From Candidatus Nanohaloarchaea archaeon (lineage in GTDB: Archaea > Nanohalarchaeota > Nanosalinia > Nanosalinales > Nanosalinaceae): 11,754 bases of DNA. The stretch's first letter is position 1, and each line of letters begins with the position of its first letter. Of the stretch, positions 36 through 9,721 are shown piece after piece. The notes beneath the pieces were generated by a model. The model was not told the DNA's origin, made no database searches, and saw only the letters and a list, made by a program, of their open reading frames with translations. The stretch is from the NCBI GenBank assembly GCA_042217695.1, contig JBDGSE010000037.1, forward strand, positions 1 to 11,754. Reading direction: 5' to 3'. The translations under genes were made by a program, and so were the position numbers.

Positions 36-55
36 TGCGAGGGCGAGGATTCGAA
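36..55 (-). repeat. 20-bp exact duplicate of the tRNA-Leu 3' end
   Basis: tgcgagggcgaggattcgaa at 36-55 is identical to 105-124. Confidence 0.95.
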
Positions 56-104
56 TGCGAAGCTGGCGCTTCTATGTTCGAATCCGGAGTAAAGCAAACC
101 TGTT

Positions 105-187
105 TGCGAGGGCGAGGATTCGAACCCCGGAACCTCTACAGGACAGCGCCCTCAACGCTGCGCCTTTGACCACTTGGCTACCCTCGC
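105..187 (-). tRNA. tRNA-Leu (anticodon GAG), CCA not encoded
   Basis: Reverse complement GCGAGGG TA GCC AAGTGGTCAAA GGC G CAGCG TTGAGGG CGCTG (long variable arm) CGGGG TTCGAAT CCTCG CCCTCGC A folds into a complete class II cloverleaf. Anticodon GAG is at 153-151. Confidence 0.95.
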
Positions 188-340
188 GAACTTCTGAAAG
201 TTCGATCATCACAAGGCATGCCGCGCATGCCTTTCAGGACCTGCCTATTGTTTTTGGAGGGTTGGCAAGCCGCTCTTGGCTACCCTCGCAATTGGTTACG
301 CTCAATTGATACGCAACAAGCCATGCTAGGCATGGCTTTC
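173..340. repeat. Degenerate tandem repeat (~102-105 bp period): tRNA 5' fragment + hairpin A + hairpin B
   Basis: Hairpin A: CGAACTT-ctga-AAGTTCG (187-204) and CAATTG-8nt-CAATTG (289-308). Hairpin B: AAGGCATGC-cgc-GCATGCCTT (213-233) and AAGCCATGC-tag-GCATGGCTT (318-338), both in an AC...TC context. Confidence 0.8.
275..289 (-). repeat. 15-bp exact duplicate of the tRNA-Leu 5' end
   Basis: cttggctaccctcgc at 275-289 is identical to 173-187. Confidence 0.9.
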
Positions 341-370
341 GAACTGAAGCTATAGAAGGTGTTCGTGAGC

Positions 371-426
371 TATTTTTTTAACTGGTTTGTTCCCTGCTCC
401 CGCAAGAAAAAACATACTTAAATTCT
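371..426. promoter_or_regulatory. Probable divergent archaeal promoters (tRNA-Leu leftward, ECF operon rightward)
   Basis: Minus-strand TTAAAAAAATA at 381-371. Plus-strand A-rich BRE-like tract followed by CTTAAAT at 417-423, about 30 nt before ATG 450. Confidence 0.5.
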
Positions 427-449: not shown

Positions 450-1010
450 ATGGGAGGGGCCGCAGACGTTTTACCGGGCAGTTCGCCCGATTTGAAGGAT
501 GTTTCTGATTCTGTTGGATCCACTCTTACGAGACGTCTGGCGGCGACCGCCGCGCTCACCGCTACCGGCATCGCGGGACGCGTACTTTTACAACACTCTC
601 CCAGCGTGGAGCCCATCGTGGCTATAGCGGTGGGAATCGGATTCATTCATGACTGGAGGCACGGTGCATCCTCGGGAGCATCAGGTTTCTTCCTCTCCAA
701 CTTTCTCGTGTGGGGTGGACAGGGCCCGTGGACCGTCTTCCAGGTAATCGGTGCGGGAGCCGCGGGCGCCACGGGAGGCCTGTTCTCGAGGTTCTCTTCT
801 TCGAGAACCATGTTTTTCGCTTCGCTGGTCGCAGCGACCGTGCTCTACGAGTTTTCGGTGAACCTCGGTTCGCTGGTATACGGCATGGGGGCTTTAAACC
901 CGGCTTTCCTGGCAGCGGCGGTTCCCTTCGGCCTGATACATCTTACAAGTTCGATAAGCTTTGGTGCAATGATCTATGGATTTAAAGAACGGATTGGCAG
1001 GCTTTACTGA
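450..1010 (+). CDS. ECF transporter S component, probably cobalamin-specific (CbrT-like)
   Basis: About 6 hydrophobic helices, with GRVLLQHSPSVEP, SNF...GQGPWTVFQ and PFGLIH motifs typical of CbrT-like S components. Adjacent to a DUF4430 gene. Start is ATG 450 or TTG 492. Confidence 0.8.
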   Translation: MGGAADVLPGSSPDLKDVSDSVGSTLTRRLAATAALTATGIAGRVLLQHSPSVEPIVAIAVGIGFIHDWRHGASSGASGFFLSNFLVWGGQGPWTVFQVIGAGAAGATGGLFSRFSSSRTMFFASLVAATVLYEFSVNLGSLVYGMGALNPAFLAAAVPFGLIHLTSSISFGAMIYGFKERIGRLY

Positions 1011-1410
1011 ATCAGTGGAAACCGAGTACGTTGCGCTTGGAGTCGGATTACTCGCTGTGCTGCTCCTGGCGATGCAGCTACAGCCCTCCGTGAAGGGGGG
1101 AGAACAGATCTCGATCTCGCTGAAGGTCGACTTCGGCGAAAGGGTGGAGACCCGGAGCCTGACACTCTCCAACAACACAACCGCCTTCGAGGCGGTGAAC
1201 GGGAGCTTCGACGTGGAGTACAGGGAGTACGACATGGGCTACTTCATAACCTCGATAGGGAACGTCAGTATGGATTCGAACCATTCCTGGCTCTATTTCG
1301 TGAACTCGGAACCGGCGAAGAGGGCCGTCAACAGGTACCTCCTGGAGGACAACGACAACCTTACTTTCCGGTACCTCGAGAACTCGAAGGCGTCGAAATA
1401 CTTCGACTGA
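976..1410 (+). CDS. Membrane-anchored DUF4430 (transcobalamin-like C-terminal domain) protein, putative corrinoid-binding
   Basis: N-terminal TM anchor followed by TAFEA...GYFITSIGN...WLYFVN...Y.L...D.L.F.Y, the DUF4430 signature. Overlaps the ECF gene by 35 bp. Confidence 0.85.
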   Translation: MDLKNGLAGFTESVETEYVALGVGLLAVLLLAMQLQPSVKGGEQISISLKVDFGERVETRSLTLSNNTTAFEAVNGSFDVEYREYDMGYFITSIGNVSMDSNHSWLYFVNSEPAKRAVNRYLLEDNDNLTFRYLENSKASKYFD

Positions 1411-1419
1411 GGTTTCAGC

Positions 1420-1426
1420 TATAAAA
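1420..1426 (+). promoter_or_regulatory. TATA box for leaderless lipoate ligase gene
   Basis: TATAAAA lies 24-30 nt upstream of ATG 1450. Confidence 0.6.
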
Positions 1427-1449
1427 CTTTCAAAGAGTATGGAGTGTTT

Positions 1450-2469
1450 ATGAGGAGCGAGGCTTCTGTCAAGGTTCCCAGCGGCAAAATGGTAAAAGCT
1501 GCGGTTGATGTCCGCGAGGACCAGCTGGAAAACGTTTCCATACGGGGCGACTTCTTTATAGAGCCCCCTGAGGCGCTTGAGGAACTGGAAGAGGCGTTGA
1601 CCGGTCTTGACGTCGATGCCGAGAGGGCAGAGTACCTCGCGACCGTGGACGAGGTGGAGGGAAAGATGATAGGGTTCTCCGCCGAACACGTCTACGAGGC
1701 CATACAGGAGGCGGTAAAACAGACCCGTTGGAGGATAATAGATGCGGGGATACACTCCGAGGCGATGCACCACGCGCTTGACGAGGTTCTGCTTGAAAAG
1801 ATGGAAGAGGGAGATATGAGGCCGACCCTGCGTTTCTGGCACAGGAAGAACCCGGCGATACCTTTCGGCAGGTTCCAGTCCTACGAGGATGAGGTCCAGC
1901 AGGAATACGTTGAAGACAACGGTATAGAGGTCGTGAGGCGGATAACCGGTGGCGGGGCGATGTACTCGGAACCCGGAGACATAATAACGTATTCGATGTA
2001 CCTCCCTAAGGAGATGGTCCCCGAGGATGTCGAGGAAAGCTACGAAGAGCTGGACCGGTGGGCTGTAGAGGCGTTGAACGACCTGGGTGTAGAGGTGGAG
2101 TACCAGCCGCTGAACGATATCGAACACGAGGATGGAAAAATCGGTGGCGCCGCCCAGCTGAGGAAGCAGGGCTCGGTCCTGCATCACACCATGATAAGCT
2201 ACGATCTGGACACGGAGAACATGCTGAAAGCGTTGAGGGTCGGCAAGGAGAAGGTCTCCGACAAAGCCATAGAATCCGCGGAGAAACGTGTGGCGGTGAT
2301 AAGCGACTACATCGACCGTTCACGGGACGAGGTGATTGAAGCGCTGAAGGAGAGGTTCCAGGAAAGGTATGGAGGCGACGAGGATATGCTTGACGAGGAA
2401 CTGCTCGAAAAAGCGGAGGAACTGGCGGAGGAAAAGTTCTCCACCGAGGAATGGAACCGGAAGCTCTGA
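1450..2469 (+). CDS. lplA: Lipoate-protein ligase with the accessory (LplB-like) domain N-terminal to the catalytic domain
   Basis: N-terminal KVPSGKMV...I.GDFFIEPPEALEELEEAL accessory domain. Catalytic motifs PTLRFW, VVRRITGGGAMY, ND...KIGGAAQ, LHH and WN at the C-terminus. ATG 1450 is preferred over GTG 1444 from TATA spacing. Confidence 0.92.
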   Translation: MRSEASVKVPSGKMVKAAVDVREDQLENVSIRGDFFIEPPEALEELEEALTGLDVDAERAEYLATVDEVEGKMIGFSAEHVYEAIQEAVKQTRWRIIDAGIHSEAMHHALDEVLLEKMEEGDMRPTLRFWHRKNPAIPFGRFQSYEDEVQQEYVEDNGIEVVRRITGGGAMYSEPGDIITYSMYLPKEMVPEDVEESYEELDRWAVEALNDLGVEVEYQPLNDIEHEDGKIGGAAQLRKQGSVLHHTMISYDLDTENMLKALRVGKEKVSDKAIESAEKRVAVISDYIDRSRDEVIEALKERFQERYGGDEDMLDEELLEKAEELAEEKFSTEEWNRKL

Positions 2470-2499
2470 GTTTTTAAGTCTTTGATACACGGAGTATCC

Positions 2500-2937
2500 G
2501 TGGTGTTAACAGGTCTGCTGGAGGAGGCTGAATGGCAGAGAGTCGAGAAGAACTCATTTGCCGTCTCCGATTCTGAAGTACTTGGGATAGACCATCTGGG
2601 CAGCTGTATCGGTGTAGGTATCTACGACCCCCAGGATTCGAGGACGGCGCTCCTGCACGCAGGTACAAGAGAGAACACGGAAATCGAGGAGATCCTGGAC
2701 GCTTTCCTGGAGGAAATCGACTTCGAGTGGCCCTACGAGGCCCTGGCCGGGGGAACCATATCATCAGATTACGACCCTCTGATAGAGGACGACGTATACG
2801 AACAGGCCCGGGAAACCGTGGGCGAGGCACTGGAGGAAAGCGGCTTCAGATACCAGACAGCATGGAACGACCGTCCTGTATACAACAGGATGGCTGTATC
2901 CCCAGAACACGGGATCCTCTACGACGAGACGCGTTAA
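2500..2937 (+). CDS. CheD-like Cys-His amidohydrolase/deamidase
   Basis: LGSCIGVGIYDP.....LLH matches the CheD LGSC...YDP...H catalytic motif, and a later LAGG motif is present. Start is uncertain (TTG 2482, GTG 2500 or GTG 2503). TTTAAG at 2473-2478 favours ~2500. Confidence 0.7.
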   Translation: MVLTGLLEEAEWQRVEKNSFAVSDSEVLGIDHLGSCIGVGIYDPQDSRTALLHAGTRENTEIEEILDAFLEEIDFEWPYEALAGGTISSDYDPLIEDDVYEQARETVGEALEESGFRYQTAWNDRPVYNRMAVSPEHGILYDETR

Positions 2938-3452
2938 TAGTCCGGGTTCTTCTCTTCCACATCTTCCAGAAAGTTCTCGTGGCGGGCCATTACAAAGAAA
3001 AGATCGCTCAGACGGTTGACGTAGGCCAGCACCTCTCCCCTCAACTCCTCCTCGCTGTCGAGCGCCACCACTGCTCTCTCTGTCCTCCGGGCCACTGAAC
3101 GCGCCAGGTCGAGGTAAGCCGCCGATTCAGCTCCTCCAGACAGAACAAAATCTCTTATTTCAGGGCTTTCATCTCTCATAGCGTCTATCCAGTCCTCAAG
3201 CAGGTCGATATTTTCCTGGCTTATCTCTTTTTTGTGGTCTCGGTCGGCCAGCTCCGCCTGGAGTATATGGAGGTCGTTCTGTATCTTTTCAAGTTTTTCC
3301 TCTTTTCTCTCTGCTTTTACAGCGGCGAGACCTGTCAGGGAGTTCAGTTCATCGATGTTGCCGATGGCCTCTATCCTGCGCGAATCTTTCGATACTCTTT
3401 CACCCGAGAAAAGGTCTGTCCTGCCCTCGTCCCCTCTCCTGGTGTATACCAT
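2934..3452 (-). CDS. pduO: PduO-type ATP:cob(I)alamin adenosyltransferase
   Basis: YTRRGDEG.T.L..GERVSKD..RIEA.G..DELNS, ARSVARRTER and YVNRLSDLFFVMAR signatures. Confidence 0.95.
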   Translation of the reverse strand: MVYTRRGDEGRTDLFSGERVSKDSRRIEAIGNIDELNSLTGLAAVKAERKEEKLEKIQNDLHILQAELADRDHKKEISQENIDLLEDWIDAMRDESPEIRDFVLSGGAESAAYLDLARSVARRTERAVVALDSEEELRGEVLAYVNRLSDLFFVMARHENFLEDVEEKNPDY

Positions 3453-3490: not shown

Positions 3491-4765
3491 TTATCTCTCG
3501 GTGAAGACGAATCCTGTCACCGTCTGGTTCTTGAACGTGGAGAACTCCTCGCCCTTGCCTCCTATCTCGCCGTAACCGTAGAAACCTGCGACCGGGCACT
3601 CGAGGTGGTCCCGGAGCATCCTGATCTCGCGTTCCCGTTCCTCCTCCGTCATTATCTGGTTCCTGTTGGTGCAGTCGGTCACGATGCCGAAAAGTGGTTT
3701 CTGCCCGGGTTCAACGTGGTCAAACGCGTCTCTTGCCGCCTCCACCACCCGGTCTCTTTCGGCCTCCACCACGTGGATGGACTGGGTCTCCTCTACCTCC
3801 GAGGTCATGACCAGTCCATTATCCCGTGTAACCTTCAGAGGTGTTACGATACGGTAGTTGCCTGGCGATATCTGCTCGGCCAGCGATTTCTCCAGAGAGT
3901 ACTGGAAAACCCTGTGGATGTTCAACGGCGACTCGCCACGGAGTTTCATACCTATATAGCGTCCGATGACCCTCAGTTTCCGGCCAAGCGGCAGGTCAAA
4001 CATCTTTTTGAGGTCGGAGACGTCTTTACCTATGACATCGGCGTAGAACTCTGCGGCAGGTCTGCCGTTTATCTCCTTTATGACCCGGCCGTCGGATTCG
4101 CTCACCATGCCGCTCTTCAGCGTCTCATCGAACCCGTGAGCCTGACCTCTCCTTATCGGGTAGTCGGATTCTATGGCTGTGAGCACCACTGCATCATCGT
4201 ATACCTCTCCGTTGAGGAACTGGTAGGTCCTCCTCATCTCTACGTTGTCTCCTGCGGAACCACCGGATACCGGTATATCGGCATTTATCTCGCCGGTTAT
4301 CCCCTTCAGGACCTCGAACTCCACTCCCTCCTGTCTCTGTGTTAACCCTGCCATCAGGGCAAAAAGTATCCTGTGGCGCTCCGAGTCAAGGTAGTCCTCG
4401 TCCACCACCTCTCTCGCGGCAGCCTCACCTGCCTCAACAGGCCGGGAGTAGACATTCCTCGAGACGGCCGTGGTAAACTCTATCTCAGGGGAACCTGCCA
4501 GCATCAGCACAGCCGAATCCGTGGTGGAGCCTTCGTCAGATATCTCGCCGGCCGTGGATGCACCGACCCATTCAGCATCCTCTTCCTCCATCCTCTCGTC
4601 GAGGCCGGAGGCTAGTCCTTCCAGGTCGAAACCGGGAGCTGCGAAGAGAAAACCGAAATCCACACGCGCCATGTCGCTATAGGCCTTCTTGAACAGTTCT
4701 TTACCGGCTTCACGGCCGTCAACGTCTTCCAGATGCACGACAGATTCTCCCGCTTCTACGCCCAT
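3491..4765 (-). CDS. Stand-alone FIST N+C domain protein (424 aa)
   Basis: VGASTAGEI, GGSAGD...TYQF, EING.PA..Y, C..R...E and GFYGYGEI...F.NQT motifs. Start moved to ATG 4765 (MGVEAG), which matches the paralog's MGLDVG start and avoids overlap with the divergent gene. Confidence 0.9.
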   Translation of the reverse strand: MGVEAGESVVHLEDVDGREAGKELFKKAYSDMARVDFGFLFAAPGFDLEGLASGLDERMEEEDAEWVGASTAGEISDEGSTTDSAVLMLAGSPEIEFTTAVSRNVYSRPVEAGEAAAREVVDEDYLDSERHRILFALMAGLTQRQEGVEFEVLKGITGEINADIPVSGGSAGDNVEMRRTYQFLNGEVYDDAVVLTAIESDYPIRRGQAHGFDETLKSGMVSESDGRVIKEINGRPAAEFYADVIGKDVSDLKKMFDLPLGRKLRVIGRYIGMKLRGESPLNIHRVFQYSLEKSLAEQISPGNYRIVTPLKVTRDNGLVMTSEVEETQSIHVVEAERDRVVEAARDAFDHVEPGQKPLFGIVTDCTNRNQIMTEEEREREIRMLRDHLECPVAGFYGYGEIGGKGEEFSTFKNQTVTGFVFTER

Positions 4766-4776
4766 ACCTGTTAATT

Positions 4777-4822
4777 CCCTGTCAGGGTTGATATTGGTTG
4801 TCCCGGGAAGACGTTTTATTTT
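4777..4822. promoter_or_regulatory. Divergent promoter region between the FIST gene and the citrate-cleavage operon
   Basis: TTTTATTT at ~4813-4820 lies about 30 nt before ATG 4847. Minus-strand AATATCAA at 4795-4788 lies before ATG 4765. CCCTG-t-CAGGG palindrome at 4777-4787. Confidence 0.45.
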
Positions 4823-4846
4823 TCGCGGCGAAAGCTGTAGTGTCGG

Positions 4847-5959
4847 ATGAAACTGTACGAGCACGAGGCGAAAGACATCCTCGAGGAACACGGTATCGAT
4901 GTGCCTGGCTCCGAGGGACCCGAGTTCGTGGTGAAGGCACAGGTGCTGGCGAAGAACCGTAAGGAACAGGGAGGGATAAGGTTCGCCTCCTCGCTGGAGG
5001 AAGCCAGGGAACTTGCGGGAGAGATGCCGGAAACGATCTCGGGGAGAGAGGTGGAGGACTTCCTCATCGAGGACCGCGTCGATTTCGAGAAAGAGTTCTA
5101 TGTATCTTTCCTCTACGACACGGACACCAGGAATCCCGTGATGCTTTTCTCTTCCTCTGGTGGATCGGGAATAGAGGACCGTGAAGTGAAAAAACTGGTG
5201 CTGGAGGACGGGATGCAGTGGCGTTTCCGCGACTTCCTTTCACGGCAGGAGATAGACGACATGATCGGGCTGGGCTCCACGCTGCAGAAACTGTTCCAGG
5301 CATTCCTTGAAGAGGATGCCAGGATGCTCGAGGTAAACCCGCTGGCAAAGACCCCGGAAGGCTACGTTGTGCTCGACGCGATGATGGACCTTGACGAGGA
5401 TGCGTCCTACCGGCATTCCCGCGACCTTCCCGAGCGGTCGGACCTGGGACGCGGTAAAACGGAGAGAGAACTGGAAGCCGAAAAGATCGACGAGGACGAC
5501 CACCGGGGCGTGGCGGGCAAGTACACCGAGCTCGACGGCGATATCGGGATGATGCTTGCCGGCGGGGGAGCCTCGCTGACCAATATGGACGCCCTGATAG
5601 AGTACGGGGGAGAACCCGCGAACTATACCGAGTACGGCGGCAACCCTCCGACCGAGAAGGTCTACCGCCTGTCGAAAGTTATAATGTCGAAACCCGGTCT
5701 GAAAGGGCTGTGGCACGTCGGCGGGACCGCGAACAACACCGACATACTGCGGACGATGAAGGGATTCGTCCAGGCTCTGGAAGAGGAAAGACCCGGGTAT
5801 CCGATAGTCGTGAGGCGGGATGGGCCGCACGCGGACGAGGCCTTCGAACTTCTACGTGAGACCCGGGACGAACTCGGGTTGAACATGAAACTTTTCCGGA
5901 ACGACACGCCGATGACGCAAACCGCAGAAGTACTGATGGAGATGGTGGAACAGCAATGA
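4847..5959 (+). CDS. Citryl-CoA synthetase large subunit / ATP-citrate lyase beta-like subunit (ATP-grasp + citrate-binding domain; SucC superfamily)
   Basis: MKLYEHEAK, VVKAQV, EFYVS and LEVNPL..LDA ATP-grasp motifs. C-terminal AGGGAS..MD, ANYTEYGGNP, GGTANNTD and IVVRRDGP match the ACL citrate-binding domain rather than SucC (NGAGL, ANFLDVGG, VVRL.G). Confidence 0.85.
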   Translation: MKLYEHEAKDILEEHGIDVPGSEGPEFVVKAQVLAKNRKEQGGIRFASSLEEARELAGEMPETISGREVEDFLIEDRVDFEKEFYVSFLYDTDTRNPVMLFSSSGGSGIEDREVKKLVLEDGMQWRFRDFLSRQEIDDMIGLGSTLQKLFQAFLEEDARMLEVNPLAKTPEGYVVLDAMMDLDEDASYRHSRDLPERSDLGRGKTERELEAEKIDEDDHRGVAGKYTELDGDIGMMLAGGGASLTNMDALIEYGGEPANYTEYGGNPPTEKVYRLSKVIMSKPGLKGLWHVGGTANNTDILRTMKGFVQALEEERPGYPIVVRRDGPHADEAFELLRETRDELGLNMKLFRNDTPMTQTAEVLMEMVEQQ

Positions 5960-6027
5960 GCAGTTTGCTTGAAGTAGAAGACGTGGAAATCTCAAAGGAT
6001 AATGGACCGGGAGGTCTCGAACGATGA
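5956..6027 (+). CDS. 23-codon mini-ORF MSSLLEVEDVEISKDNGPGGLER (possible gene remnant or coupling peptide)
   Basis: ATGA overlaps at both ends (5956-5959 and 6024-6027). GGTGG SD-like motif at 5944-5948. Confidence 0.45.
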   Translation: MSSLLEVEDVEISKDNGPGGLER

Positions 6028-6629
6028 ACATACCCGTATTCGACATCGGTGATACGTTGCTCCCGTCACGAAGGATGATAAACAGGAAGGTCCATGAACA
6101 CACGGGGACGGAAAAACATTTCCCCATAGAGGAGTACAACATCTACGTCCCGGAAGAAGTGCAGAACTGGCTGGACGAGAACGGTCTCGAGGGAAACGCG
6201 GAGGAGATAACCAGGAGCTACCTGGACTGGGAGCGCTCGTTCTTCCGCGGCAACAGCGTCGTGGAAACGCTGAAAAAATGCAACCAGGAGCTGGGCACTA
6301 TCGGCTTCATCAGCGACAACTCGATAGCCGCCAAGAAGTTCTACCGGGAGCTGTTCCAGGAGCTCGGTGTCGAGTACAGGGGTTTCGTGGTCTCCGAAGA
6401 GGTCGGAGTGAAAAAGCCCTCCAGGGAGATATTCGAGGCCTTCCTGGATAAGCGGGAGAGACCCGCGGAAAAGTTCGCCTATTTCGGAAACAACCCGGAG
6501 AGAGATTCTGGCGCGGAAAAAGTCGGGATGGACTTCGTCTGGGTCGACAGGTACGACGACTTCGGTTCAGAATGGAGCGGCAAAACCATACAGGAGTTCA
6601 GCTTTGAAAAGATACAGGAGGCGGTGTAG
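6024..6629 (+). CDS. HAD-superfamily hydrolase
   Basis: FDIGDTL (motif I), ISDN (II), SEEVGVKKP (III) and FGNNPERD.GA (IV variant). SD GGAGGT at 6010-6015. Confidence 0.88.
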   Translation: MNIPVFDIGDTLLPSRRMINRKVHEHTGTEKHFPIEEYNIYVPEEVQNWLDENGLEGNAEEITRSYLDWERSFFRGNSVVETLKKCNQELGTIGFISDNSIAAKKFYRELFQELGVEYRGFVVSEEVGVKKPSREIFEAFLDKRERPAEKFAYFGNNPERDSGAEKVGMDFVWVDRYDDFGSEWSGKTIQEFSFEKIQEAV

Positions 6630-7523
6630 ATGGCCATAATAGTTGACGAAGACACGAAGGTGTTGGTACAGGGGATAACCGGGAGGGAGGCATCGGAAAA
6701 AGTCCCGGAGATGCTGGATTACGGGACCGATGTGCTGGCGGGCGTCACCCCGGGCAAGGGCGGACAGGAGGTCTCAGGCGTCCCGGTATACGATACCGTG
6801 TCGGAGGCCCTGAAGGAACACCCCAGGATAAACACCTCCCTGGTCTACGTCCCCCCCTTCGCGGCGAAGGACGCTATATTTGAATCACTGGAGAACGGTA
6901 TAGAGACCCTGAACGTCATCACCGAACGGATACCCACGAGGGATGCGTGGGAGATACACCGGGAGGCAGAGCGAAAAAACGCCACCGTCGTGGGCCCTAC
7001 CTCTGTCGGGATAATATCGCCCGGAAAATGCAAGCTGGGGCCTATAGGCGGGAACGAACCAGAGCGCGTCTACCGCGAGGGCAGGGTCGGCGTGATATCC
7101 AAGTCCGGCGGCATGACCACCGAAACGTCCTGGGTGGTGCGCCAGGCAGGCTTCGGGGTCTCAACCGCGGTCGGGCTGGGAGGCGACGTGATAGCAGGCA
7201 CAACTTTCGAGGACGCCCTTAAGATGTTTGAAGAGGACGACCAGACCGACGCGGTCGTGCTGTTCGGCGAGTTAGGCGGGACCTACGAGGAAAAAGCCGC
7301 CGAACTTCTCGACTCCGGAGATTTCTCCAAGCCACTTGTTGCGTTCGTGGCGGGGAAGTTCACCGAGGACATGCCTGAAAAGAAGTACGGCCACGCAGGA
7401 GCCATCATCCGGGGCGACAGAGGCAAACCCTCCGGCAAGGTAGAGGCTCTGAGGGATGCCGGGGCGCACGTGGCGGACGTCCACCACGAGATAGGCGAGA
7501 AGCTGAAGGAAGTGCTGGACTAA
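6630..7523 (+). CDS. Citryl-CoA synthetase small subunit (SucD-like CoA-binding/phosphohistidine subunit)
   Basis: [20 protein letters not shown]...GII.PG, SKSGG.T.E, GLGGD, GE.GG..EE and GHAGA (phospho-His). SD GGAGG at 6617-6621. ATG directly follows the HAD stop codon. Confidence 0.9.
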
Positions 7524-7560
7524 CCGGGACTATTTCAATATCTTTACCCCACTGTTCCAC

Positions 7561-8262
7561 ATGACAGACTGGAAGACCTCGATCTCTTCCTCGGGAGAAG
7601 ACGCTGTTGTACGCGGAGTCCCGCAGGAAGAGGTCATGGAGATGGATTTCGCCGACGCCATCTGGCTTTTACTGACAGGGGAGAAGCCCTCGGAGGATGA
7701 GTCAGAACTCTTCAACACCGTACTGTCATCAAGCATCGACCACGGCGTCGGGAACCCCTCGACCGTAGCATCGAGGACCGTGCAGAGCGGCGGCAACGGG
7801 ATGAACACCTCGGTCGGCGCCGGGATACTCGCGCTGGGAGACCTCCACGGCGGAGCCATCGAGGACTGCATGGCGATGCTTCAACAGGAGAAAGACCCTG
7901 AGGACATAGTCGAGGAACGGCTCGAATCCGGCGACAGGATCCCCGGGATCGGCCACAAGGTCTACGATGACGAGGATCCCCGGGCCAGGAAGATAATCGA
8001 GAAAGCGGAGGACCTGGGGCTCGATGGAGAATACACAGAAAAGATGAGGTCTGTCCGGGAAACGTTCGCGGAGGAAAAAGTCGAGCTGGTGATGAACGTG
8101 GACGGCGCAATCGCCGCGGTGATGTCAGACCTTGACTGGGACCACCGACTGGGTAAAGGCCTCTTCATAATCGCAAGGACTCCCGGACTCGTCGCGCATG
8201 TGAGAGAGGAGATGGACGAAGACCCGTTCCGGCGTGAAGACGGGGAATACACCGGAGACTAG
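7561..8262 (+). CDS. ccl: Citryl-CoA lyase (citrate-synthase-like fold)
   Basis: 233 aa, WKTSIS start, DHG..PS, LHGGA, IPGIGH..Y...DPRA, NVDGAIAA and ARTPGLVAH.REE. Too short for a full citrate synthase. Confidence 0.88.
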   Translation: MTDWKTSISSSGEDAVVRGVPQEEVMEMDFADAIWLLLTGEKPSEDESELFNTVLSSSIDHGVGNPSTVASRTVQSGGNGMNTSVGAGILALGDLHGGAIEDCMAMLQQEKDPEDIVEERLESGDRIPGIGHKVYDDEDPRARKIIEKAEDLGLDGEYTEKMRSVRETFAEEKVELVMNVDGAIAAVMSDLDWDHRLGKGLFIIARTPGLVAHVREEMDEDPFRREDGEYTGD

Positions 8263-8546
8263 CCGAGCTGCTCCCTGAGTTCCTCCGGGAGCTCCAGGTC
8301 CACATCGCCGTACTCGTCCTCGATGGCACGGGCGGACAGCGCGTATGCAACCGGCCCCATAACATTGTTGAACTGTTCGAGGATATCCTCCAGCGCTTTC
8401 TCACCGTTATCCACAGAGATCACCTCTCCGTCCTCGTCCAGTTCCACCTCCCCGGACTTGTTGGCCTGTGCCACGACGAAGTTCTTTCCCTGCGTGTCTA
8501 TGAGTTTCTGAACCACCACATTTATGATGTCCGCGTAGTCTGTCAT
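8259..8546 (-). CDS. Small acidic helical hypothetical protein (95 aa) translationally coupled to the FIST gene
   Basis: ATGA overlap with the upstream FIST gene (8543-8546). Acidic composition like the other cytoplasmic proteins. Confidence 0.8.
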   Translation of the reverse strand: MTDYADIINVVVQKLIDTQGKNFVVAQANKSGEVELDEDGEVISVDNGEKALEDILEQFNNVMGPVAYALSARAIEDEYGDVDLELPEELREQLG

Positions 8547-9721
8547 TGTCCTAGCACCTGTATCGATGCTGTTTCCTCATGGAAGCGGGGACGTCCGTTG
8601 CTGGTGGCGATCTGTCCGTAGGCGAACAGCCCCACCACCGGGGTGTCCTCCCCGACTTCCTCCTTTATCCTCTCCACTTCTTCCCGGGTCAGCTCCATAT
8701 CGTCGTAGACAGCGTGCCTGCCGGCACAGCTGAACACGAGGGCGGCATCCACCTCTTCTTTCTCCAGACCGGCGTTCTCTCTTGCCTCTCTCGCCGCCCG
8801 TCCGGCGGCATCCAGGAGCCGGGGTTTCTCCGCCCGCATAAGGTGGACCTCCAAGTTTTCCTTCACGGGAGCTCCCAGGCTGAAGCACCCGTCCTCATCG
8901 ATGTCGAGCGCGACCCTTAACTGGGGTTCCTCCTCTCCCAGGTCTATCCCCATCGGGGTCATGAGCAGAAAGCCCGGGTCCTGGGCGTTTTCCTCGCCGT
9001 AGATCTCGCTGTAAACTGTCAGAGGCCTTTCGCCGTCGAGCTCTCTGAGGTAGGTGGCGTCGGCATCCGTTATCTCATACGTGCTGGGTGTTTTCCGGAA
9101 CCCGTGGGCCTTGTCGCCACCGACTTTACCATCCCAGTCCACCACGGAGCAGACCACCGCGTCCTCCATGACCTCTCCATCGTAAAACACGTAGGTATGC
9201 TCGAAGCTGAGGTCGTCGCCCGCGAACTGGCCTGCGGTGGAGAAACCGTGTCCCAGGTAGTCAGTTATCCCGTCCAGGACGTGGACTCCGTGGCCGTGCA
9301 GGGCATCCGCGAATATGTTCACAAGTACATCTCTTTCATGGGTGCCGTCCTGCCTGAGCACGTACGGGGATATATCCTTTTCCAGGCCCTGGAAGGCCTC
9401 TTTGATGGCCTCCCTGCCTGCGTTGTAGCTGTGGTCGCTGAGTCCCTTCCCTATACCGATGGAAGCGTCCACGCCGTGGAACCCTGCCGCGACCACGGAA
9501 CCGGTTTCAGCCCCTTCAGCGATCTCCACGGTGCTCGAGGCCCCGATCACCGGTGTGTCGCCGGCGGCGTCTCCGGCCCCGGCCACTACCTCCTCCATGT
9601 CGTGGTCCGTGGATGAGAATACATAGACCAGGTCGGCGTTCTCTCCGCCGGCCTCTTCTACAGCTTTTTTGCCCGCCTCAAATGAGTCTCCGGCTTCCGC
9701 CTTTCCAACGTCAAGACCCAT
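8543..9721 (-). CDS. Stand-alone FIST N+C domain protein (392 aa)
   Basis: VIGASS..EI, AGDDLSFEHTY, ELDG.RP..VY, P.G, FSCAGR...E and GLFAYGQI...FH..T motifs. Confidence 0.92.
   Translation of the reverse strand: MGLDVGKAEAGDSFEAGKKAVEEAGGENADLVYVFSSTDHDMEEVVAGAGDAAGDTPVIGASSTVEIAEGAETGSVVAAGFHGVDASIGIGKGLSDHSYNAGREAIKEAFQGLEKDISPYVLRQDGTHERDVLVNIFADALHGHGVHVLDGITDYLGHGFSTAGQFAGDDLSFEHTYVFYDGEVMEDAVVCSVVDWDGKVGGDKAHGFRKTPSTYEITDADATYLRELDGERPLTVYSEIYGEENAQDPGFLLMTPMGIDLGEEEPQLRVALDIDEDGCFSLGAPVKENLEVHLMRAEKPRLLDAAGRAAREARENAGLEKEEVDAALVFSCAGRHAVYDDMELTREEVERIKEEVGEDTPVVGLFAYGQIATSNGRPRFHEETASIQVLGQ

Follow-up and report, generated by a model that had tools for sequence, protein, structure and literature searches.

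The window, that is, the whole 11,754-nucleotide stretch of DNA analysed here, is contig C31 of G000, a Candidatus Nanohaloarchaea genome assembly of 757 kb that is 83% complete. Close to its left end it carries an intact, intronless tRNA-Leu(GAG) gene, with copies of the gene's own ends lying outside it on either side and four hairpin modules of 45-60 bp stacked at it. The features are, from left to right:

36..55, minus strand: outer copy of tRNA positions 54-73 (T-loop to discriminator), a 100% direct repeat of 105-124
56..104, plus strand: the 49-bp 3' unit ('3A' family), with an inner hairpin (59-63/68-72) and an arm (77-85) that pairs with the outer copy at 47-55
105..187, minus strand: tRNA-Leu(GAG), called by ARAGORN and by Rfam RF00005 (52.5 bits); position 1 is 187 and the discriminator A73 is 105
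188..239 (far end approximate), plus strand: module B, with hairpins 187-193/198-204 and 213-221/225-233
240..274, minus strand: unit A, a tRNA-Leu-specific 5' unit made up of a loop (270-274), an arm (257-269), an A-rich linker and the segment 240-245
275..289, minus strand: outer copy of tRNA positions 1-15, a 100% repeat of 173-187
290..345 (far end approximate), plus strand: module C, with hairpins 289-294/303-308 and 318-326/330-338
370..386, minus strand: a conserved A/T-rich motif, a putative promoter, present upstream in 13/24 orthologous tRNA-Leu(GAG) loci

A preliminary description, made from the letters of this DNA, had reported a copy of each tRNA end, an inverted copy of each, and small inserts with no integrase, and all of this is borne out. 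The 3'-end repeat covers 20 nt at a spacing of 69 and the 5'-end repeat 15 nt at a spacing of 102, both at 100% identity. Segments 47-55 and 77-85 pair at 9/9 positions and, by direct reading, 257-269 pairs with 275-287 at 11 of 13. The inserts measure 49 bp (56-104) and 87 bp (188-274), and no integrase was found among the 16 ORFs scanned in the window or in the genome at its 83% completeness. What had been overlooked is that the 87-bp insert consists of two stacked elements (unit A and module B), that module C lies outside the outer 5' copy, and that the pattern is genome-wide. Random genomic 13-mers have a near copy (at most one mismatch) within 330 nt in only 5 of 2997 trials, and chance is therefore excluded as the source of the terminal copies.

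Module B abuts tRNA position 1 on the antisense strand and has no duplication of its own; its first hairpin pair makes use of tRNA position 1. Module C is flush in the same way, here against the first position of the outer 5' copy. The unit A arm pairs with the outer 5' copy, and in folds the segment 240-245 can alternatively pair with 264-269. In an Rfam search of positions 1-1500 the tRNA alone scored above its gathering threshold (sroE reached 18.8 of 51 bits). Elsewhere in the genome, the 3' unit recurs as a 94% copy following tRNA-Leu(TAG) on contig C19 and, in part, behind tRNA-Ile on C2; module B has copies on C2, C4 (in an intron, in both orientations), C16, C27, C15 and C1, and module C on C36, C16, C28, C6 and C12.

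The rest of the window is occupied by ordinary genes. Positions 450-3452 encode a membrane protein without a Pfam match, which we take to resemble an ECF-type S component, a DUF4430 protein, a lipoate-protein ligase and a cobalamin adenosyltransferase, possibly a cofactor-scavenging cluster. A three-gene citrate-cleavage set (ATP-grasp/citrate-binding, CoA-binding and citrate-synthase-like subunits) occupies 4847-8262, with a HAD hydrolase gene in between, and is bracketed by two FIST-domain genes (3491-4891 and 8543-9721).

The locus begins 35 bp from a contig end and tRNA genes are the break point of many contigs, so that an artefact of assembly, which the preliminary description had allowed for, has to be considered. 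Among the listed contigs from the two sequencing runs (of one study, and one of them possibly the source sample) that cover the locus, none spans 1-350 and none bridges 104/105 or 187/188 with 31 letters on each side. However, the contigs cover the locus at the depth of its flanks: one contig of run X2 spans 169-1056 at flank depth with one difference, and further contigs cover 35-111 and 82-132, overlapping across 35-132. The runs also include contigs, probably from relatives, in which the tRNA appears to be joined nearly directly to the promoter or unit A to be kept without module B. The architecture described here is found again in three relatives with single-contig genomes (G013, G016 and G017), and these are stronger support for real DNA than the run contigs. 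We regard an artefact as extremely improbable.

The preliminary description had suggested a scan of all tRNA genes of the genome for terminal duplications, and this shows that tRNA-Leu(GAG) is not unique. A downstream copy of positions 61-73 is present at 13 of the 28 T-arm sites with at least 100 nt of downstream sequence, two of the 28 being doubtful tRNAs, and an upstream copy of the 5' end at 6/24 ARAGORN calls (the 146 calls made under relaxed settings are noise and are excluded from these counts). The genome has 29 non-coding pairs of direct repeats with a length of 12 bp or more: 21 are copies of a tRNA end, one is module C repeated at tRNA-Thr, two enclose modules at gene junctions and five are unrelated. 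The 3' copies start at positions 50-61 and most of them stop within 1 nt of position 73, while a few (L157 and L161) extend into the trailer. In one case the copy is of another gene: Leu(CAA) on C28 bears the 3' end of the Leu gene on C17. Four anticodon introns of G000 as we read them (Thr, Lys, Arg and Ile) open with module C, at or beside its precise end, and module B occurs in both orientations in one long anticodon intron.

Two side observations concern the same genome. ARAGORN misplaces the long introns of C4 3529-3754 and C17 1524-1721 and misnames the isotypes; by direct reading, its 'Arg(TCT)' on C4 is Ser(CGA) and its 'Leu(AAG)' on C17 is Leu(TAA). C20 3809-3898, which is not a tRNA site, has a hairpin insert of 52 bp enclosed by a 19-bp duplication, and C32 4990-5149 has an exact tandem duplication of 79 bp.

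In relatives the locus is polymorphic, and the empty alleles that an alignment might have been expected to reveal do exist, alongside single and stacked ones. In the three empty alleles the promoter-like motif stands 41-45 nt from the tRNA. Eight loci have a distance of 82-125 nt and two of 157-158 nt, whereas the locus described here has 194 nt. When module C is subtracted, about 36 nt remain between this motif and the outer 5' copy, and for this reason we infer that the outer 5' copy marks the ancestral start of the gene. Among orthologous tRNA-Leu(GAG) loci, strict 5' copies are present in 4/24, 3' copies in 5 of the 22 with downstream DNA, and both in two; a '5' copy' in L007 (a chance 8-mer at the edge of the scanned region) and the half gene in L028 were dropped from this survey. 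Arrays in relatives contain up to several units in varying order. At the T-arm sites fetched from three relatives, 3' copies number 12/28, 9/21 and 5/27, in loci that were partly chosen by pattern hits.

Searches of 70 genomes of the phylum with patterns for the individual elements gave 27 hits in 19 genomes for unit A, every one before a tRNA-Leu 5' end, and 23 hits in 13 genomes for the strict 3' unit, with no hits for the reversed control in either case. Module B was found in 35/70 genomes (one hit for the reversed control) and not in genera g15 and g19 or family f4. The near-invariant 27-nt core of module C is present at 26 genome loci, all with archaeal titles (12 Woesearchaeota, 9 labelled 'uncultured Methanosarcinales' and 5 others), and at 27 metagenome loci. 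One of the four modules is also found in other DPANN-labelled genomes. In one Woesearchaeota-titled genome (G041; for example L058 300-700), module C lies inside a non-coding repeat of about 250 bp with imperfect terminal inverted repeats and 55 matches; it has no ORF and we have therefore rejected it as an autonomous parent element.

The orthologous loci also bear on the possibility that the copies are attL/attR scars of integrase-bearing islands that have decayed to about 50 bp, or decoy att sites that would serve in defence. The phylum does have islands that integrate at tRNA genes. In L103 there is an integrase behind tRNA-Leu(TAG), and behind the tRNA-Leu(TAG) on C19 lies a remnant of 22 residues with 77% identity to the beginning of the integrase-linked frame of L103. 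This remnant, however, lies outside the duplicated pair. The preliminary description had named a relative with an integrase-bearing island between the duplicates as the observation that would point to a decayed site, and none of the 24 orthologous loci has an island there. The inserts are of narrow size and their interiors are common to different isotypes. Nor do viral contigs offer carriers: the four module patterns gave 16, 1, 0 and 5 matches in them, all of which we read as chance. Decayed att sites are not supported, and we consider either reading very improbable.

Each of the modules recurs at other tRNAs, on either strand, in anticodon introns, at protein-gene starts and across the phylum. 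In relatives, module B is placed by our reading in introns of Ser, Arg, Lys, Trp and Met genes. Module C best illustrates the range of sites. Its joining end is constant and its other end variable. An insertion after the D-loop on the sense strand comes with a repeat of the gene's 5' end, and one after the T-loop on the antisense strand with a repeat of its 3' end (L049, L056 and L062). In the T-loop or anticodon loop on the sense strand it sits inside the gene like an intron (L053, L068 and L070), and flush at a gene end it has no repeat (L055, L066 and L069). Just within protein starts, the start region is repeated (L237, L252, L260 and L262); at L237 a tRNA 5' end lies between two copies of module C at such a start. 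Module B insertions are mostly flush, while duplications are otherwise common. The elements are shared between unrelated loci, are found on both strands and in stacks, differ in their presence from one relative to another, and are precise at one end and variable at the other. Duplication is thus general, and we infer that survival of the gene decides which outcomes are observed. It is likely, in our judgement, that these are mobile mini-elements filtered by gene survival.

Two further observations on such sites are recorded here. At L291, L293, L304, L311 and L323 module B lies antisense directly before apparent ATG start codons. At L247 (about 2320-2545, minus strand) there are two module C starts, each preceded by sequence that we take to end like a CRISPR repeat, with a partial repeat downstream and no cas gene in the four neighbouring ORFs scanned.

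Could these structures have arisen in place, by replication slippage or fold-back at the hairpins of the tRNA, producing direct and inverted copies without any mobile element? The arms do track the host tRNA, and some copies reach into the trailer as far as a short match to the arm (L161 and L157). Template switching, one of the origins put forward in the preliminary description, fits the far junction at these two loci, but it does not account for modules conserved across loci, genera and phyla. The same modules stand at unrelated loci, in other phyla and at non-tRNA sites, and the shared interiors largely refute local slippage. Moreover, fixed mismatches are kept in the arms, and foreign tRNA ends are carried along with units: at L170, for example, a tRNA-Pro gene has behind it the tRNA-Arg 3' end together with the unit of the Arg locus (L170 is joined to L153 across a contig break). 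As a source of the whole pattern, local slippage seems to us improbable, if a little less so than decayed att sites.

Every family examined shows pairing between the interior of the element and the target bases immediately 5' of its precise end, over 2 bp in modules B and C and over 9-13 nt in unit A and the 3' unit. For module B, the two bases that adjoin the hairpin core on its 5' side are paired with two on its 3' side, within the element, in 24/24 of the first copies at both positions, a count from which viral and pattern-biased loci were dropped. Among 42 further copies from 40 newly fetched loci, which were hand-picked from pattern hits with rare dinucleotides favoured, pairing holds in 42/42 and 41/42, against permutation means of 22.1 and 15.7. 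The third base is at chance level (11/42, expected 11.0). Behind tRNA 3' ends the paired bases of module B include position 73 in 12 of 13 cases, and the discriminator is matched each time. Module C junctions pair in 15/15 and 14/15. At two separate positions the arm of unit A changes in step with the 5' strand of its host (7/7 versus 3/19, in loci that are non-independent), and two unit A arms match the 5' end of another Leu gene (L131 and L132). Within introns the paired dinucleotide of module B is often borne by the element, so that part of its pairing reflects no more than a conserved 7-bp stem. The p-values overstate the case, since the genomes are related and the patterns were drawn from G000.

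The same inverted arms invite an explanation at the RNA level, in which the units would have a function as leader and trailer RNAs, either in regulating or chaperoning the maturation of the pre-tRNA or in sequestering the spare ends. The hairpins are kept with compensatory changes, and the outer copies are well preserved. In folds of the leader with the tRNA alone, the 5' arm lifts the modelled pairing of the acceptor stem from 0.58 to 0.80. In the whole precursor, however, shuffling the 5' arm improved the real pairing from 0.57 to 0.87. The suggestion that the antisense segments pair with the pre-tRNA finds no support in folding: the 3' arm pairs with the outer copy at 0.98 and with the real T-arm at 0.00, and the 5' arm with the outer copy at about 0.5 and with the real 5' strand at 0.10-0.17. 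In the trailer the 3' arm is no bar to competition from the outer 3' copy (0.997 versus 0.99). The folding model takes no account of modifications or of folding order. The units are also absent from most orthologues, and the modules occur in both orientations. Control of tRNA maturation by the units is not supported, and a functional RNA of this kind is improbable, though marginally less so than local slippage.

Two specific RNA assignments were also rejected. The 350-nt precursor contains one bulge-helix-bulge motif, away from the junctions, against 2.7 in shuffled sequences, and with no excess of motifs the flanking units are not to be read as introns of this type. Module B is not a C/D-box guide RNA, as both orientations relative to transcription occur. 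Of the enzymes of tRNA processing, EndA is present in G000; RNase P RNA and HARP were not found in this 83% complete assembly, and below-threshold RNase P RNA matches were found in 4/5 relatives.

None of the families of mobilising enzyme that we searched for co-occurs with the modules. A Y1 transposase is present in 1/41 relatives and a tyrosine recombinase in 25/41, the latter not found in the single-contig genome G013, which has units on both sides. Among 70 genomes, the IS110 recombinase (PF02371) is found in none, Cas1 (PF01867) in three, G000 not being one of them, and a reverse transcriptase in seven, not including the unit-rich single-contig genomes G016, G017 and G013. The reverse transcriptases of five of the seven genomes with a match are 334-358 aa in length (L264-L267), a size that presumably points to diversity-generating retroelements. 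No circular intermediate or new insertion was observed. The mobilising enzyme may be a host protein with a function not yet recognised, or may enter from outside at times.

Two candidates were set aside. At L241 only 84 bp separate a Y1 gene from a copy of module C, and a Y1 gene is present in 4/5 module-bearing non-halophile genomes; four of the six such loci, and 16 related loci (in 14 of 401 genomes), are ordinary IS200-like elements without modules, and the 16 have end hairpins of their own and no module B or C in the flanks that were read. A weak and widespread 'integrase' match of about 370 aa was rejected as an integrase because its motifs, we believe, are those of a DEAD-box helicase.

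The main rival to direct movement of DNA involves the same elements, moved as intron RNA. Excised tRNA introns, released by EndA and starting with a 5'-OH, would enter DNA breaks by RtcB-like ligation or with the help of an occasional reverse transcriptase, and the free end would be joined by microhomology. The four introns of G000 that start with module C at or beside its precise end and the presence of EndA favour such a route, and precise and ragged ends with a variable duplication may resemble target-primed insertion. On the other hand, reverse transcriptase is as scarce as described above, both orientations occur even inside one intron, and nothing in this route would lead one to expect Watson-Crick pairing with tRNA positions 72/73. 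We consider it unlikely, but more credible than any of the other alternatives.

Short mobile DNA of related kinds is well known. REP/BIME sequences with their RAYT transposases, the guides of IS200/IS605 elements, integron attC sites, the CTX phage and the palindromic elements of Rickettsia provide examples of single-stranded hairpins as substrates, target choice by a few base pairs and short palindromes inserted into genes. Compared with REP/BIME-RAYT and integrons, no module-flanked Y1 gene and no integron integrase was found here, and the outcomes include introns and duplicated gene ends. IS110/bridge-RNA elements differ in that the IS110 recombinase is lacking in all 70 hosts, and archaeal bulge-helix-bulge introns in that the inserts of the window have no such motif at their junctions.

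The closest parallels are archaeal. In Thermoproteales, similar short sequences are met again and again as transposed bulge-helix-bulge introns, in one tRNA gene or another and not always at the same position (Fujishima et al. 2010, as reported in the available parts of PMC4090602 and bioRxiv 10.64898/2026.10.13.758758), by a mechanism that these sources describe as unknown but thought to act at the DNA level. Modules B and C are alike in appearing as related introns in different tRNA genes, but they are also extra-intronic, antisense, stacked and at protein-gene starts, with duplicated gene ends. Because they also occur outside introns, with duplicated ends, failed and rescued insertions are visible here. 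The SMR-A elements and PATEs of Haloquadratum walsbyi are transposase-free, hairpin-rich, about 80-110 bp long and nested in other elements; SMR-A is described as having palindrome targets, terminal inverted repeats, no duplication and an 'enigmatic' mobilisation, and PATEs as derived from IS605 ends, also without duplication (PMC3119063, in the part available). Compared by description rather than by sequence, our elements share with SMR-A the short transposase-free form, the targeting of hairpins and other elements, and nesting, with stacking here; they differ in having one precise and one variable end, no prominent terminal inverted repeats (neither 56-104 nor 188-274 has ends that form an inverted repeat), frequent duplications of 12-55 bp and a concentration at tRNA genes. 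They differ from PATEs and IS200/IS605 elements in that duplications are common and that module ends are unrelated to the Y1 transposon ends of 16 loci.

Elements of the SSV and pNOB8 types flank their insert with a partial copy of a tRNA 5' or 3' end and leave the gene intact (PMC3293823 and PMC3119063, in the parts available). The partial direct repeat and the intact gene are common to our loci, which differ by having no integrase or cargo, a size of 40-160 bp, copies of both ends, the same interior at many isotypes, and non-tRNA targets. Casposons also show T-loop-directed insertion at tRNA 3' ends, target duplication and polar, array-like stacking; they are kb-long, carry Cas1, end in terminal inverted repeats and duplicate 15 bp, of which 5 bp belong to the tRNA (PMC5137440, in the part available). 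Here the insertion, duplication and stacking are similar, but the duplication is variable (starting at 50-61 and ending at about 73) and Cas1 is rare. By the features that define them, our elements are not att scars, casposons, PATEs, SMR-A, REP-RAYT or IS110 elements. We found no description of them in the published literature, in a search that most subscription papers and supplements lay outside, and the available text of PMC3293823, PMC5829648, PMC10266531, bioRxiv 10.64898/2026.10.13.758758 and 10.64898/2026.05.13.725050 does not describe them. The phenomenon is real and widespread, has apparently not been published, and is akin to transposase-free short mobile repeats.

Taken as a whole, the evidence is probably best explained by at least four hits on this tRNA-Leu gene by gene-free DPANN hairpin elements of 45-60 bp. 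The idea of miniature tRNA-targeting elements, raised in the preliminary description, is supported in the main, but the targets include starts and stops of protein genes, and duplication is one outcome among several, with flush insertion and introns. For the reaction we propose the following. A strand-transferase would join the precise end to exposed single-stranded DNA (tRNA loops, the feet of acceptor stems, gene starts), with a check by short base pairing at the junction during transfer. The other end would then either join flush or be rescued by copying an intact sister or allele, leaving 12-55 bp of the target repeated. Selection would retain insertions flush at a gene end, insertions in the D- or T-loop with the gene end duplicated, and loop insertions that complete a splice motif and so become introns. 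Units of element plus copy, once formed, would also travel as cassettes, and the outer copies would be by-products, presumably trimmed with leader and trailer by RNase P and RNase Z. The single-stranded substrate, the strand-transfer chemistry, the repair route and the trimming of the precursor all stay conjectural in this scheme, and for the chemistry we would put the chances at somewhat below even; its analogues are the guides of IS200/IS605 and the integration of hairpins by tyrosine recombinases. Contrary to movement of mobile elements, outer 5' copies are identical to the gene in 21/26 unit-A loci while the interiors have diverged, which could indicate selection on the copies.

Whether the elements form a distinct class of mobile DNA is more doubtful than the chemistry, although it is possible: hairpins of about 50 bp, for which a DPANN enzyme not yet recognised picks the target by pairing, would be a direct source of tRNA introns. 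If so, flush insertion, the duplicated gene end and the intron would be three fates of one reaction. On the practical side, the repeats break assemblies at tRNA genes and can be mistaken for att sites or for split tRNAs. As to the arrival of archaeal tRNA introns, a review of 2014 called the mechanism of their transposition unknown (PMC4090602, in the part available), and a 2026 census of Asgard archaea found no general route (bioRxiv 10.64898/2026.10.13.758758, in the part available). In nanohaloarchaea, which are of a cultivable type, the same modules are found as introns, as flush insertions and as rescues that duplicate gene ends, with a junction rule that can be tested. Insertion of 50-bp hairpins by an enzyme that relies on pairing with a few bases of the target would, if this is true, represent a new recombination activity, and the elements may be a source of tRNA introns in ultra-small archaea.
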